Below are positions 37,150 through 43,352 of a stretch of DNA of 64,000 nt, in pieces. A program made the translations under genes and the position numbers. Location of the stretch: the sequence record MH752840.1; one strand, 5' to 3'. The DNA comes from Escherichia phage vB_EcoM-Pr121LW. Below the pieces are notes generated by a model that saw only the letters and a program-made list of their open reading frames with translations, made no database searches and was not told the origin of the DNA. Each line of letters starts with the position of its first letter. Position 1 is the first letter of the stretch.

Positions 37150-37632
37150 ATGTCAGATTTTATGTGGAAAGTTGGTTATTCCTCCCCTGAAATGTGTAAG
37201 GCCTGTTTTGTGAAAATAGGTCGCGAAGATATCGACAAAGTGATCCTTAAGTTTCGTGATGTGGCTGTGATCGGCAACCGAGTGCTTAAGCACTTAAAGA
37301 ATCTGAAGCTCACCAAAAAGAAATTCTTCGGACTTTTCGAAGAGAAAGTTGATGCTTGGACCCATTGCATTCAGGAAGCTAAATCTCACTACAGTGCTAT
37401 CGTTACCCCAGAACGGGTAGCCAAGATGGAAGGACTCATCAACAGCACAGAGTTTGAGTGTCTGAAAGCTGCACTCGATAGTTATCCGAAATGCCTCAAG
37501 CACTTGGACAAGTATGTAGAAAAGGATGGGGAAATGTATCTCACCCTGGACGCATACTATGAGATGCAAGAAATTTTAAATTTAGATTTGACATTGGTAT
37601 CCACCGAGTATACAATAGGTATCCGGGTTTAA
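37150..37632 (+). CDS. hypothetical protein
   Basis: 160 aa; AGGAGAAGG SD. Confidence 0.5.
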   Translation: MSDFMWKVGYSSPEMCKACFVKIGREDIDKVILKFRDVAVIGNRVLKHLKNLKLTKKKFFGLFEEKVDAWTHCIQEAKSHYSAIVTPERVAKMEGLINSTEFECLKAALDSYPKCLKHLDKYVEKDGEMYLTLDAYYEMQEILNLDLTLVSTEYTIGIRV

Positions 37633-37638
37633 CACTAG

Positions 37639-37666
37639 GCCCTGCCCGAAAGGGTGGGGCTTTTTG
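37639..37666 (+). terminator. rho-independent terminator GCCCTGCCC-GAAA-GGGTGGGGC plus T5
   Basis: GC-rich stem with G-U pairs, GAAA loop, TTTTT; identical hairpin recurs at 47785. Confidence 0.7.
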
Positions 37667-37683
37667 CATTAGGAGACAGCAAA

Positions 37684-38448
37684 TTGAAATTTATCTACAA
37701 AGAACACTACCACAAAGGTGTTGTGTGGAGTCTATTTGACGGGTCTGGTGGTGCAGTCATTGACTGGGCAAAAGCTGGGTACCTGTGCCTGTGCTTTAAT
37801 GCAGAAGGTGCTGATCACGGCAGTTATGCAGAGGTGATAACCGATCATCCCAACATTCACTATGTGGATTATTGGATTGACCCATGGTTCCCTCAGGAAA
37901 CTTTTTGCATGTACCCAGCTCCAGACTTTATTCTTGCATTTCCTCCGTGCACGCATTTAGCGGTATCAGGTGCTGCACATTTTAAGAAAAAGCTGGCTAA
38001 GGACCCTATGATCCAAATTAATGCTGTAAAGGATGCTCGGGTTGCGGAAGAGCTGGGAGAGATTTACGATTGCCCGTGGCATGTAGAGAATCCTGTAGGT
38101 GTTATGTCCACACTGTGGCGCAAACCTGATTACCGTTTTCATCCTTCTGACTATGGCGGGTATTTACCGGAGGATGATGTAAACCCTTGGTTTCCTGAAT
38201 TTATAGCTCCACGCGATGCCTATCCAAAAATAACTTGCGGCTGGATAGGTAATGGATTTATAATCCCGGCCACAAAACCTGTCCCGCAAATAGTTGACGC
38301 GGTTAGCGGGTATTCCATGCAACACGCTAAGCTAGGTGGAAAAAGTGCAAGGACGAAGATGATTCGAAGCCTCACACCCCGTGGCTGGGCAAAAGCCGTA
38401 TTCTTAGCAAACGAGCCTGTAGTAAGGAGCAGAATTAATGGGAAGTAA
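37684..38448 (+). CDS. C5-cytosine DNA methyltransferase-like protein (non-canonical)
   Basis: ORF track 37654 (GTG inside terminator); TTG 37684 preferred, AGGAG SD 8 nt upstream; motif I SLFDGSGG, motif IV-like FPPCTH, motif VI-like HVENPVG with canonical spacing; PCT replaces PCQ. Confidence 0.5.
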   Translation: MKFIYKEHYHKGVVWSLFDGSGGAVIDWAKAGYLCLCFNAEGADHGSYAEVITDHPNIHYVDYWIDPWFPQETFCMYPAPDFILAFPPCTHLAVSGAAHFKKKLAKDPMIQINAVKDARVAEELGEIYDCPWHVENPVGVMSTLWRKPDYRFHPSDYGGYLPEDDVNPWFPEFIAPRDAYPKITCGWIGNGFIIPATKPVPQIVDAVSGYSMQHAKLGGKSARTKMIRSLTPRGWAKAVFLANEPVVRSRINGK

Positions 38449-40516
38449 ATTTATGGCATCTGCATATAACCGTTTCGGTGAGCCAAACCCGAAAGCAACT
38501 AAGTATAAAAGTGGGGGAAGTGTGAAACGAGACTATCGTGATGAAAAAGAAGTTGAAACTGTAGAGACTGTTTTAGAAAATACTAAAATCGTCCCTGTCC
38601 CACAACAAAATATTGGTCTGATGGCTGCACAATATTTTGGTGTGCGATCAGCATTGTCCCAAGAAGACGGTGTGACAGTTACTGCAACATATTTCCCATA
38701 TTACGACCGCTACGGGAATCTGTCCGGTTTCAAAAAGCGTGACTGGACGATCCCCAAAGAGCAACGTGGGCACTTTACGACGGTTGGGATCGTAAAGGCT
38801 AACTCCCAGATGTTTGGGCAAAAGCTGTGTGCATCTTCTAACAACCGTAAGCAGATTAACGTTTGTGAGGGGGAAGGCGATGTTATTGCAGCATGGCAGG
38901 CTGCATATCAGATACAAGTAAAAGGGATTCTCACCAACGCTAAAGCCCCGGCAAAGGTGAAACAGTGGGCTAAAGAGGTCCAGGACGGGATCGATGCAGT
39001 TATCAACGGGGGTGATCTGGCAGGAAAACCCTGCCTACCTTTTGTTGGAATTAACTGTGGATGTGCAAACGCAGTAGATACTTTTGCAAACAATGAGAAA
39101 TTTATCCGTAGCTACGGAACAGTGGTCCTTGCAATGGACAACGATGCAGCTAACGAGGTAGAGAAGCAAAAACACGTTATCAAAGGTGTTGAAGCCACAC
39201 ATAATATCGCGGCATTTTTGATGGCTGATAACGTTTACCACGTGGAATACCCCAGCGAGGTAAACGATCCTGACGGTGTAAAAGATATCCGTGACATGCT
39301 GAAGGCTAAAAAGCTGGAAGATATTGTCAACATGTTCCGTCACCCAGTCAAATATGTGCCCGATGCTGTATCTGATTTAGAAGACTTCTCCATTGAATCT
39401 CTTCGTAAGAAGACTTCTAATGGCGTAGATATCAGCGCGGAGTTCCCTAAATTACAGAAGATGCTGAAAGGACTCCACAAAGGCACCTTGATGATGCTGA
39501 CAGGCCCATCTGGCGGTGGTAAAACAACTGTAGCCAAGAAACTAGAGCACTGCATTGCAAAATACTTGATGGATCCGACATGCCCTAAAGCCGATGATTA
39601 TGAAGAGGATGATCGCCTGTGTCTGATTCACCTTGAAGAGGACCCTGAGGAAGCAATTAACTCTCTGTACGCCAACCAGTTGGGGTTTGATGTTAAAGAG
39701 TTTGTTGAAGACCCTAGTCAGTTCCTGACTGATCAGGAGCATGCTGAGATTCACCAATCTTGGGCCAAGGCTGGAAAAATCAAAGTGTTCAAGCATTTTG
39801 GGTCTATTCCTGTAGATGAGTTGATCACTAAGCTTAAACAAATGGTGTGTCTGTATCACTGCCGTTACATTGTGCTGGATCACCTGTCCATGGTAATTTC
39901 AGGGCTTAATGTTAAGGATGAGCGCAAAGAACTTGACATGGCTATGACGCAACTAGCCGCGTTCTGTAAGCAGTTTAATGTATTTATCTTGGTGATCGCT
40001 CACCTGAAACGCACAGAGATTGTGCCTCCAAAGGACAAGGATGGGAATCCGTTACCTTTCTGGTATCCTGTACGAAAAGAGAACCTTCGGGGTAGTGCCG
40101 GATTGGAGCAACTTAGCTGGGTAGTTGTTGGGGTGGAGGCAGAAGAGATGGTGGATCGTTCCCGTGGACGTGTCCGACTGGTAGGTCTTAAAAACCGCCC
40201 AGCAAAAACGTTAGGCATTGCGGATACCTTAGTTATGGATCCCCACACAGGTAAGTTCCATGATGCCAGCAACTGGTACTGGGACAAAGAAATGCAGATG
40301 TTCACAGACGGCGAAGGTGGGGAAGTTGTTTGGAGACCTCAAGCTATGTTTGAGGATCAAGAGCACGCAGTTGTAGAAACACCTGTAGGTAGGGTTGTGG
40401 CTGATAAGGTTGTAACTCCTACTGTTAACCCTGTTGACACACAGGAAGACCTTCCGTATGATGATCCGTCCTCTGACCCTGTTCCTGGCTTTGAAGACGA
40501 TGAAACACCTTTTTAA
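38438..40516 (+). CDS. DNA primase-helicase (Toprim primase fused to DnaB-like helicase)
   Basis: 692 aa; Walker A LTGPSGGGKTT in C-terminal half; T7 gp4-like architecture. Confidence 0.85.
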   Translation: MGSKFMASAYNRFGEPNPKATKYKSGGSVKRDYRDEKEVETVETVLENTKIVPVPQQNIGLMAAQYFGVRSALSQEDGVTVTATYFPYYDRYGNLSGFKKRDWTIPKEQRGHFTTVGIVKANSQMFGQKLCASSNNRKQINVCEGEGDVIAAWQAAYQIQVKGILTNAKAPAKVKQWAKEVQDGIDAVINGGDLAGKPCLPFVGINCGCANAVDTFANNEKFIRSYGTVVLAMDNDAANEVEKQKHVIKGVEATHNIAAFLMADNVYHVEYPSEVNDPDGVKDIRDMLKAKKLEDIVNMFRHPVKYVPDAVSDLEDFSIESLRKKTSNGVDISAEFPKLQKMLKGLHKGTLMMLTGPSGGGKTTVAKKLEHCIAKYLMDPTCPKADDYEEDDRLCLIHLEEDPEEAINSLYANQLGFDVKEFVEDPSQFLTDQEHAEIHQSWAKAGKIKVFKHFGSIPVDELITKLKQMVCLYHCRYIVLDHLSMVISGLNVKDERKELDMAMTQLAAFCKQFNVFILVIAHLKRTEIVPPKDKDGNPLPFWYPVRKENLRGSAGLEQLSWVVVGVEAEEMVDRSRGRVRLVGLKNRPAKTLGIADTLVMDPHTGKFHDASNWYWDKEMQMFTDGEGGEVVWRPQAMFEDQEHAVVETPVGRVVADKVVTPTVNPVDTQEDLPYDDPSSDPVPGFEDDETPF

Positions 40517-40574: not shown

Positions 40575-43352
40575 ATGAGTATGTATAGCTTCGATTTTGA
40601 GGCCTCTGGGCTTTTGGAAGATCCAGACCTTTATTATCACTGCGGCCTGTTTAAAGCGTTGAATAAGAACCGTTTTATGCTGTTCCTTCCTCTGAATGAC
40701 CGCACACACTACTCCGAGGAGGATATAGAGAAGGCTAAGAACTTTATTCTGGCAAAGAAAACTCTTTATAAGGATTTTGAAGTTCGCATAGCAGATTTTT
40801 CGGAGTTGGAAGGTTGGCTTACAGGAAATTCTGACTGGTCACCAACAGCTTTGAACTGCCATAACTGCTACAGTTATGACTTTATGCTGATGGAGAGATT
40901 GTCCGGTATTCATTTTGATATGTTCCGTGACCCTAAGTGTATGGGGACTATCAACGACCACCAGGTTAATCTGTTTGATACGTTGGCGATGAGCCGAATC
41001 TTGTGGCCTGATCGCCCTTTACCAAAAGGTTGTCCGGACTCTGTATTCAACCCGGTTACTAAGAAAATGCAGCCTGTTGGTCCTCACGGACTTATGGCAT
41101 GGGGCTACGCCCTTGGTAACCAGAAAGTTCAAATTGATGACTGGCGCGATCTTCCGTTGTGGAAGTATGTGGATCGTGTATTCGAGGACGTTATCATCCA
41201 GGAGCTGCTCTGGAAAGAGCTGGTAGCGGAATCAAAAGGTGTATTCTACGGCAAATCTGACATGCAGAACTTTATGTACGATCCTGCCAAAGAGAAGCCG
41301 AAAGGGTTCAAGAAGATCACCTGGAAGAACGCATTACGCCGAGGCATGCTGCAGCACTTCCTGATGGAACTGCAGGCCCGTCAGGGTGTGTATTTTGACA
41401 TAGATGGAGCTATTGCTTTACGTGACCGTTGCGATGCGTGGATGAAAGAAATCGCTGATCGTGTTGAACCTCAACTTCCTTTAAAAGAGTTATCAATATC
41501 TCAGCGGCCCAAGTTCCCTGAAAAGCCGTTTAACCAAGACGGGACAATCTCTAATAATGGTTGGAAATGGTTAAAAGATAAGCTTGGCTATCCTGTAGAC
41601 ATGAGCGCTTTAGATTTCAAATCCCCGCCTAAGCGAGCATTTACCTCTACAGGAGATGTCAGCAAGATGGGGATAAAATGGTGTGAAGAGATGGGCTGCA
41701 AAGACCCCGATAAGATGGCTGATTTCTTGAGAGGCTATATTAAGGGCACTTCCACACCTCACCCTTTGCCTAAAGAGCTGATGGATCAGGCAATAAGTGA
41801 TCTACAGCAGAAGCGAATGCCGGACTGCAAGATACCTATGAAAATCAGCAATCAGGACGACATTAAGCGGTATCTGATCAGTGCTGGCTGGCTACCGACA
41901 ATGTGGAGAACTAAGGATGTAACTAAAGATAGCAAGAAGAAAGCTCTACCTGATGCGGATGTTGATGCACGAGTATATGCATATATGGACGAGCTTTTAG
42001 AGTCAGAGTATTGTGACCTGATTATCAACTTCTGGAACAAAACTGATGCCAAGTTCCAGACAACTGTGCACAAGTTCCGAAGCTTTCCTAACTCTGAAAG
42101 GATTAAAAAGGAAGTATTCGGGAAAATACGTAGAAAAGCCAGAGCACTTATTACTTCTCCGCAACTGAAAGATACGTTTGGACACCTGTGTCCGAATCTT
42201 GAAAAATTGAACGGAGAGATGGCTAAAGATATCGTCTTGTGGTTATCATTGCGAAACCGCAGATCAGTCCTTGACCCAATCAAGGAGGATAAGGTTGATA
42301 CTGGTCTTCTTAATCACCCACGTTTGAAGATTGACCATAAGCTTCCTGCTAAAAGCTCTGGATTAACAAACACTTCCAGACAGAAACACAGTATTTGTGC
42401 AAACATGCCTAAACCATCCCCCAAAGTGGTTATGGGTAAAGAGATGCGCAGTCTGTGGGGTGTTCCTCCTGGATACTTTCAGATCGGTATTGACGGGTCC
42501 AACTTAGAGCAGCTTATCGGGGCTTGGGGTGCCTTTGAGTTCGACAACGGCTTGTATTATGATGTTGTAAGTAACGGGGACGCACACCAAAACAATGCTG
42601 AGGCATATACAAAAGTAGCAGGCAGAGAGGTGTCTCGTAACGACGGTAAACCTATCACGTATGGGGTTATGTACGGGGCACAAAAAGATAAAGTTGCAGA
42701 TATGCTGGACATCTCTCCAGAGTTGGGACAAAGGGTAATCGATGCACTCTGGGATGCCAACCCTGGTCTCAAGGGGCGCAAAGAGGATCTGGAGAAATTC
42801 TGGGAAGCAACTGGTAAGAAGTTTATCTACTCTTTTGATGGTCATGCTATCTGGACCAGATCTAAACACTCTTTACTTAATGCATACCAACAGAATGGTG
42901 GTGCATCGCTGTGTGACTTAGTTGGGATACTTATGCACCACCAGATGGTGAAGCGTGGGTGGTACGATGAAGGTGTTCGTCGTATTATCTATTACCATGA
43001 TGAGTACCAACTTCAGGTCCCTGACACTCCTAAGTATAAGACTGTGTACACCTTCGACACAATTGAAGAACTGGAAGCATTTAAGGCAGAGCAGGAGGCC
43101 AAACTTCATGTGTTCGACGGTCATAAGTACAAAAAGGCACGCAAGGATGAGGACGGAAACGAAGTGGTTGACAGAGACGGAAACACGGTGTACGATCCTA
43201 TCCTGAACGATGACGGAAAGCTTGAACTTATCTGGAGCCCTGTGGGTGAAATGGTGGTGCATTGCTTCTGGCAAGCTTCTAAAATGATGGGAGTCCCGTT
43301 CCAGATCACAGGTGAATACTTGTGTGGTCGTAACTGGGGTGATTGTCACTAA
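40575..43352 (+). CDS. family A DNA polymerase with 3'-5' exonuclease domain
   Basis: 925 aa; Exo I FDFEASGL; motif A-like IGIDGSNLEQ; motif B K…YGVMYGAQ; motif C YYHDEYQ. Confidence 0.9.
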   Translation: MSMYSFDFEASGLLEDPDLYYHCGLFKALNKNRFMLFLPLNDRTHYSEEDIEKAKNFILAKKTLYKDFEVRIADFSELEGWLTGNSDWSPTALNCHNCYSYDFMLMERLSGIHFDMFRDPKCMGTINDHQVNLFDTLAMSRILWPDRPLPKGCPDSVFNPVTKKMQPVGPHGLMAWGYALGNQKVQIDDWRDLPLWKYVDRVFEDVIIQELLWKELVAESKGVFYGKSDMQNFMYDPAKEKPKGFKKITWKNALRRGMLQHFLMELQARQGVYFDIDGAIALRDRCDAWMKEIADRVEPQLPLKELSISQRPKFPEKPFNQDGTISNNGWKWLKDKLGYPVDMSALDFKSPPKRAFTSTGDVSKMGIKWCEEMGCKDPDKMADFLRGYIKGTSTPHPLPKELMDQAISDLQQKRMPDCKIPMKISNQDDIKRYLISAGWLPTMWRTKDVTKDSKKKALPDADVDARVYAYMDELLESEYCDLIINFWNKTDAKFQTTVHKFRSFPNSERIKKEVFGKIRRKARALITSPQLKDTFGHLCPNLEKLNGEMAKDIVLWLSLRNRRSVLDPIKEDKVDTGLLNHPRLKIDHKLPAKSSGLTNTSRQKHSICANMPKPSPKVVMGKEMRSLWGVPPGYFQIGIDGSNLEQLIGAWGAFEFDNGLYYDVVSNGDAHQNNAEAYTKVAGREVSRNDGKPITYGVMYGAQKDKVADMLDISPELGQRVIDALWDANPGLKGRKEDLEKFWEATGKKFIYSFDGHAIWTRSKHSLLNAYQQNGGASLCDLVGILMHHQMVKRGWYDEGVRRIIYYHDEYQLQVPDTPKYKTVYTFDTIEELEAFKAEQEAKLHVFDGHKYKKARKDEDGNEVVDRDGNTVYDPILNDDGKLELIWSPVGEMVVHCFWQASKMMGVPFQITGEYLCGRNWGDCH

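Follow-up and report, generated by a model that had tools for sequence, protein, structure and literature searches.

A putative minimal DNA cytosine-5 methyltransferase encoded in the replication module of an rV5-like Escherichia phage

Introduction

Does the short gene in front of the primase/helicase gene of Escherichia phage vB_EcoM-Pr121LW (MH752840.1) encode a working DNA cytosine-5 (C5) methyltransferase, or only the relic of one? The question was raised by a preliminary description of a 64-kb stretch of this genome (64,000 nucleotides, hereafter the window), which recognized three C5-methyltransferase-like motifs in an unusually short product, and considered either an unusual DNA-modifying enzyme or an inactive derivative. 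The homology, fold, catalytic-residue conservation and genomic context described below are properties of the window protein itself, whereas its activity, biological role and sequence specificity we infer from them and from a relative. We propose that the protein is an active, stand-alone AdoMet-dependent DNA cytosine-5 methyltransferase of the phage-specific minimal family PHROG 757, termed "Dcm-like" in the BASEL collection, to which we assign a probability of about 0.82. The gene is known, annotated and conserved, and belongs to a large phage family of which one member has been characterized experimentally; in the literature searched, we found no experiment on the window protein or any Vequintavirus orthologue.

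Gene organization and genomic context

At its longest, the open reading frame runs from 37654 to 38448 on the plus strand; however, the GTG at 37654 is an unlikely start, because the stem of an intrinsic terminator covers it. This hairpin (37637-37662), which precedes a TTTTT run, comprises an 11-bp stem and a GAAA loop and has a folding energy of -22.8 kcal/mol (z = -3.1). The TTG that had been proposed as the start just after the terminator is confirmed in that position (Table 1), and is also matched by an 80%-identical homologue (P0002), which starts at the equivalent residue. The same 765-bp coding sequence is annotated in phage LL12 (gp214, "DNA cytosine methyltransferase") and in phage rV5 (gp226, "DNA methyltransferase"). 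The promoter-like site within the end of the upstream reading frame corresponds to the annotated "Sigma70-type promoter; P231" of rV5, and the whole stretch from promoter through terminator and ribosome-binding site to TTG is identical in the window, LL12 and rV5. The promoter-like site ends only ~20 nt before the strong terminator hairpin, so that a transcript from there would reach the terminator almost immediately; LL12 and rV5 preserve this arrangement with 100% identity.

Table 1. Features of the methyltransferase locus (window positions; aa, residues of the window protein)
Feature	Position	Strand	Remarks
Sigma-70-type promoter-like site, TTGACA-17 nt-TACAAT	37588..37616	+	11/12 matches; within the end of the upstream ORF
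Intrinsic terminator, hairpin and T-run	37637..37667	+	Separates the upstream ORF from the methyltransferase gene
Shine-Dalgarno AGGAGA	37671..37676	+	7 nt before TTG 37684-37686; RBS annotated there in LL12
C5-cytosine methyltransferase CDS (minimal)	37684..38448	+	TTG start, TAA stop; 765 bp, 254 aa
Motif I, SLFDGSGG, aa 16-23	37729..37752	+	AdoMet-binding glycine loop after β-strand 1
Motif IV, FPPCTH, aa 86-91	37939..37956	+	Catalytic Cys89 (codon 37948-37950); Thr90 (codon 37951-37953) in the usual place of Gln
Motif VI, VENPVG, aa 134-139	38083..38100	+	Glu135 presumably protonates cytosine N3
Family-specific conserved segment, aa 150-189 (FHPSDYGGYLPEDD...PRDAYPKITCGWIG)	38131..38250	+	Replaces canonical motif VIII; holds Lys182
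Short linker, aa 190-227, mostly coil	38251..38364	+	Occupies the canonical place of TRD and motif IX; basic KLGGKSARTK
Motif-X-like segment, IRSLTPRGWAKAVF, aa 227-240	38362..38403	+	Opens the C-terminal helix

The gene shares its last 11 nt with the beginning of a primase/helicase gene (38438-40516; 692 aa), which is followed by a gene for a 925-aa DNA polymerase (40575-43352); homologous methyltransferase genes also adjoin helicase or primase genes in several other phage families. A 4.2-kb region of the locus shares 99.3% identity with LL12 and 97.6% with rV5, of the genus Vequintavirus, and the methyltransferase region is conserved in at least 112 rV5-like genomes. The view of an unusual DNA-modifying enzyme stands as far as a short C5-methyltransferase lacking a target-recognition domain (TRD) is concerned, but not as to novelty, the gene being annotated in LL12, rV5 and many other phages.

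Several differences among the rV5-like genomes were observed around the locus. LL12 carries an extra 276 bp at window position 42998/42999, inside the polymerase gene, and its DNA polymerase A is annotated as intron-interrupted, whereas the polymerase of the window is encoded by one uninterrupted 925-aa frame, which looks like a presence/absence polymorphism of a small intron. At window position ~36400, an additional gene of ~1.3 kb (L004:242-1567 in rV5) is present in rV5, O157 typing phage 5, JEP1 and "Campylobacter phage" records; in rV5, it is rv5_gp230, which encodes a 441-aa methyltransferase similar to adenine-specific methylases and is absent from the window and LL12. The site is a variable slot for a second methyltransferase and precedes the conserved C5 enzyme by a few genes. 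At least 16 "Campylobacter phage" records (MG0656xx), with Campylobacter jejuni given as host, match E. coli rV5-like phages at 93-98% identity in this region; such identity despite a distant host suggests that these genomes are mislabelled or contaminants.

Family membership and conservation

The window protein matches PHROG 757 ("DNA methyltransferase") over residues 2-251 with an E-value of 5e-87, and fits the full-length family profile with its signature motifs PPCT, ENP, GGYLP.DD, RDAYxK.T and RSLTPRG. Homologues number 3,555 among 90%-identity clusters and fall into 2,063 clusters at 50% identity (E <= 1e-3), and 1,505 phage records gave tblastn matches; rV5-like, T1-like, Dhillonvirus, Webervirus, Chi-like and Vibrio phages are among the many groups represented. 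The unusual shortness pointed out before (~255 aa, by our count 254 aa) is shared across the family: almost all full-length members among the matches listed have ~210-260 aa, with a median of 233 aa among the proteins retrieved.

Conservation was computed over 116 diverse family representatives. In the motif IV region, Pro87 is conserved in 92%, the catalytic Cys89 in 93% (108/116), Thr90 in 86% (100/116) and Gly96 in 99%; in motif VI, the values are 97% for Glu135 (113/116), 92% for Asn136 (107/116) and 98% for Pro137 (114/116). Conservation reaches 91-97% for Asp178, Tyr180, Lys182 (92%), Thr184 and Trp187 of the family-specific segment, and 82-92% for Arg228, Ser229, Pro232, Gly234 and Ala238 of the motif X region. 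The three motifs do occur in the order claimed for them (Table 1), and they are not chance matches, given the E-value of the PHROG 757 match, the more than 3,500 homologues, and the coincidence of the motif residues with the most conserved columns of the family. The reported Thr in the place of the canonical Gln after the catalytic Cys is likewise real; however, the inference of an inactive or aberrant derivative does not follow from it, as Thr is the family norm and PC-Thr is thus no mark of inactivation, and the active DNMT3B has PC-Asn at this position.

For the window protein, no relevant match to Pfam or NCBIfam was found even at E <= 10, which places it below the gathering threshold of PF00145, and a PADLOC scan gave no match at E <= 1; a SCO4226-like Pfam match (E = 0.11) was rejected as noise. 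PF00145 matched 20 of 28 family members at E <= 1, three of which (P0055, P0071 and P0072) pass its 22-bit gathering cutoff, and the matches were always confined to motifs I-IV. The Pfam and NCBIfam models therefore miss a very abundant phage family, with ~2,000 clusters at 50% identity and ~1,500 phage genomes. When the longer family members (300-450 aa) were scanned for fused domains, a single one was found in one protein, an HNH endonuclease domain (PF13391) at residues 250-298 of the 348-aa P0265, which may represent a homing-endonuclease fusion or an insertion into the methyltransferase gene.

Overall structure and comparison with canonical C5-methyltransferases

The AlphaFold2 model, built with the family alignment, has a mean pLDDT of 89.1 and a pTM of 0.89, and adopts the class I Rossmann-like fold of C5-methyltransferases. 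Motif I lies at the end of a strand (residues 13-17) that leads into a helix (residues 23-30), and its LFDGSGG aligns with LFAGLGG of M.HhaI by hhalign and with LFDGIATG of DNMT3B in the family profile. At motif II, the window protein has Asn39, as do K42 and KarlJaspers, where the wider family has Asp. The residues Glu135-Asn136-Pro137 of motif VI follow a β-strand (residues 132-136), and the C-terminal helix opened by the motif-X-like segment spans residues 233-251.

The region between motifs VI and X departs from the canonical layout. The QxRxR of motif VIII is absent from the protein, and its equivalent place is taken by the family segment RDAYPK(I/K)TC.W, with P154, D178, Y180, K182, T184 and W187 as the conserved columns of residues 150-189. 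As had been noted, there is no obvious TRD: only ~38 residues, mostly coil, separate the motif-VIII strand (residues 184-189) from Arg228, in a protein of 254 aa compared to 327 aa in M.HhaI. In the model, this linker contains only two short helices (residues 212-216 and 222-229); its KLGGKS.RTK stretch is conserved, and a canonical motif IX is missing or unrecognizable.

Structural similarity search using Foldseek retrieved DNMT3A/B with E-values of ~3e-6 and TM-scores of ~0.5. The structure scores of DNMT3B (13.7), HhaI (11.0) and HaeIII (10.6) all exceed that of DNMT2, and, as judged from the predicted model, the closest resemblance of the phage family is to DNMT3. At the sequence level, M.HaeIII was a marginal match and a ciliary protein an insignificant one in a single-sequence PDB search, and a search with the family profile gave only sub-threshold matches (E ~0.3), all of which were to DNMT3B or M.HaeIII and covered motifs I-IV. 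In this profile search, the family sequence PPCTDLA aligned on SPCNDLS of DNMT3B; since DNMT3B is active with PCN, a Gln after the catalytic Cys is not required. The hhalign comparison of the family with M.HhaI (using a sequence 327/327 identical to 10mh_A) covered motifs I-IV only, with Cys89 corresponding to Cys81 and Thr90 to Gln82, and at E = 0.011 and a probability of 3.8% it supports the register but is weak by itself.

A characterized relative in phages K42 and KarlJaspers

The gene bas06_0055 of phage KarlJaspers (Bas06, MZ501090), 711 bp in length and annotated as "Dcm-like C5 cytosine methyltransferase", encodes a protein that shares 54% identity with the window protein over 235 aa, at full length (E = 2e-86). 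The genome of phage K42 is 95.4% identical to that of KarlJaspers, and its dcm gene is likewise 711 bp (Wang et al., bioRxiv 10.1101/2023.08.16.553469; later Cell Rep 2024;43:114857). Escapers of K42 from the retron Ec86 had lost or silenced dcm, and 34/35 Ec86-sensitive phages encode Dcm (Wang et al.). When expressed alone, K42 Dcm was toxic only if the retron was present, and LC-MS detected high 5mC in the msDNA with K42 Dcm but low 5mC with the empty vector (Wang et al.). The quadruple mutant C82A/E128A/K175A/K176A gave low 5mC and did not trigger Ec86, and the authors assigned a substrate-binding role to Lys175 and Lys176 (Wang et al.). As 5mC is formed when K42 Dcm is expressed alone, no other phage protein is needed.

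In bas06_0055, the residues mutated in K42 Dcm, namely Cys82, Glu128, Lys175 and Lys176, land on the PPC, ENP and YxKK motifs; in the window protein, they correspond to Cys89, Glu135, Lys182 and Ile183. This bears directly on the suggestion of an inactive derivative. A catalytically dead or regulatory offshoot of a C5-methyltransferase, serving for example as a DNA-binding or decoy protein, could be read from the missing Pfam match, from the combined absence of the Gln after Cys, the canonical motif VIII arginines and the TRD, and from the Ser that replaces the catalytic Cys in 6/116 family representatives. However, the window protein retains the Cys, the Glu-Asn-Pro and all other highly conserved residues of the family, DNMT3B shows the Gln to be dispensable, and a 54%-identical homologue exists whose K42 equivalent makes 5mC in vivo and loses this activity upon combined mutation of the four equivalent residues. 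Given an active relative at this identity and the retention of all the highly conserved residues, the inactive-derivative reading is very unlikely. Instead, PC-Thr, EN-Pro and the TRD-less architecture represent a functional variant rather than decay.

A split enzyme with a separate recognition subunit, as in M.AquI, was also considered for the absent TRD, and was rejected because the neighbouring genes differ between phage families and K42 Dcm works alone.

Substrate, transferred group and specificity

An alternative reading is that RNA is the physiological substrate, with the protein acting as a tRNA m5C methyltransferase like DNMT2. Against it, the DNA enzymes outscore DNMT2 in the structure comparison, the gene lies within DNA replication modules, and the effect of the K42 enzyme was read on the DNA stem-loop of msDNA, where mutation of CCTGG in the DNA stem abolished the defence (Wang et al.). 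We consider an RNA substrate highly improbable, and favour DNA.

The transferred group might also differ from methyl. A carboxymethyl group from carboxy-SAM, a cofactor made by the CmoA of the host, as used by the phage enzyme CmoX, would leave 5-carboxymethylcytosine, or a mixture, in the virion DNA. The window protein model is structurally similar to CmoX, the Pro-Pro-Cys motif occurs in both, and Arg228 in the conserved motif X region is a candidate counterpart of CmoX Arg350, CmoX having an Arg in place of the motif X Asn. However, DNMT3A and DNMT3B, which the family resembles most, have an Arg in motif X as well, yet are genuine methyltransferases. Moreover, motif IV reads FPPC here instead of the defining SPPC, no cmoA or amide-ligase gene is annotated nearby in LL12, rV5 or KarlJaspers, and the LC-MS signal from K42 Dcm was clearly that of 5mC. 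A non-methyl transfer is therefore given only a slim chance, and methyl transfer from AdoMet is by far the preferred reading.

The CCWGG specificity of K42 Dcm was assumed by analogy with E. coli Dcm, with the loss of defence upon mutation of the CCTGG in the msDNA stem as its sole support, and msDNA from the dcm+ strain MG1655 contained little 5mC without the phage enzyme (Wang et al.). The low level in a dcm+ host is compatible with a specificity or substrate preference unlike that of host Dcm; if host Dcm can reach the msDNA, the phage enzyme does something that host Dcm does not. The 64-kb window contains 126 CCWGG sites at an observed/expected ratio of 0.79, neither strongly avoided nor enriched, which says nothing on specificity. 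Among 6-bp GC-rich palindromes with 4-9 occurrences expected in the 64-kb window, GGCGCC, CGATCG, CCGCGG and GACGTC are absent, and TGGCCA and TGCGCA occur once each; CTAG and GTAC are likewise depleted. This depletion fits restriction-site avoidance and has no evident link to the methyltransferase, and a guess at the specificity from such site statistics was dropped, since the depleted CTAG, GTAC, GGCGCC and CGATCG offered no interpretable connection to the enzyme.

A bolder reading is that the PPCT family represents the smallest natural DNA C5-methyltransferase, with a TRD-less mode of recognition unlike that of the characterized enzymes, and with a specificity or cofactor (carboxy-SAM) that departs from the CCWGG/"Dcm" label; we regard this combination as rather unlikely, albeit less so than the rival readings above. 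Recognition may involve a very short motif, read-out by an oligomer like that of DNMT3, or a structural feature, for example a hairpin or an intermediate of replication. A link to the TET-associated phage C5-methyltransferases, which are Pfam-annotated and have GpC specificity (Burke et al., PMC8256090), was also considered and set aside, as nothing was found that ties them to the PHROG 757 family.

Proposed mechanism and biological role

Based on the motif correspondence and the predicted fold, we propose that the Rossmann-like core would bind AdoMet via motif I and the motif-X-like Arg-Ser segment, and that the target cytosine would be flipped out of the DNA. Cys89 (C82 in K42/KarlJaspers Dcm) would then attack C6 while Glu135 (E128 of K42 Dcm) protonates N3; C5 would receive the methyl group from AdoMet, and the enzyme would be freed by β-elimination. 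Lys182 and its neighbours in the family-specific insert probably stand in for the canonical motif VIII arginines; Lys182 and Ile183 are the counterparts of K175 and K176 in K42 Dcm. With no separate TRD, DNA recognition would have to come from this insert together with the ~38-residue basic linker.

The position in the replication module and the promoter-like site of its own suggest that the gene is probably expressed with the replication genes. The enzyme would then methylate the phage DNA, and incidentally the host DNA, after replication; direct data on the methylation of rV5-like DNA were not found in the literature searched. The most plausible benefit would be resistance to certain m5C-sensitive restriction enzymes. 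In the BASEL study (PMC8594841), the Vequintavirinae were reported as "exceptionally susceptible" to the tested restriction-modification systems, and any protective effect must thus be narrow and site-specific. A putative cost is recognition of the methylation by defences, the retron Ec86/Eco1 among them, as is the case for the relative. Once mapped, the specificity would predict which restriction systems are blocked by the enzyme, as well as which methylation-sensing defences (retron Eco1, type IV enzymes) act against rV5-like therapeutic phages.

Comparison with known systems

The K42/KarlJaspers Dcm shares PPCT, ENP, YxK and RSLTPRG with the window protein and is of similar build (236 versus 254 aa), and in both cases a stand-alone gene of a lytic coliphage lies near replication genes. 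They differ in the type of phage, a Drexlerviridae siphovirus for K42/KarlJaspers and a Vequintavirus myovirus for the window; in addition, the window protein has an N-terminal extension of 8-10 residues, and Ile183 in the place of Lys176 of K42 Dcm. "Dcm-like" is an annotation label, and does not indicate that the protein is orthologous to host Dcm or specific for CCWGG.

Compared to M.HhaI, M.HaeIII and the Dcm of E. coli/Shigella, the phage protein has Thr instead of Gln after the Cys, and Pro instead of Val in ENV. The canonical type II enzymes have 327 aa or more, with a TRD of ~80-100 aa and the QxRxR motif, whereas the phage protein of 254 aa has neither. The 333-residue CmoX chain (PDB 8yf3; PMC12783734) is also longer than the window protein and contains a full target-recognition region; moreover, CmoX is genomically linked to CmoA and a ligase (PMC12783734), in contrast to the window gene, which is without such neighbours. 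The catalytic domains of DNMT3A and DNMT3B share 13-15% sequence identity with the phage protein, which is ~30-60 residues shorter, lacks recognizable motifs VIII and IX, and possesses a conserved insert of its own (residues 150-183).
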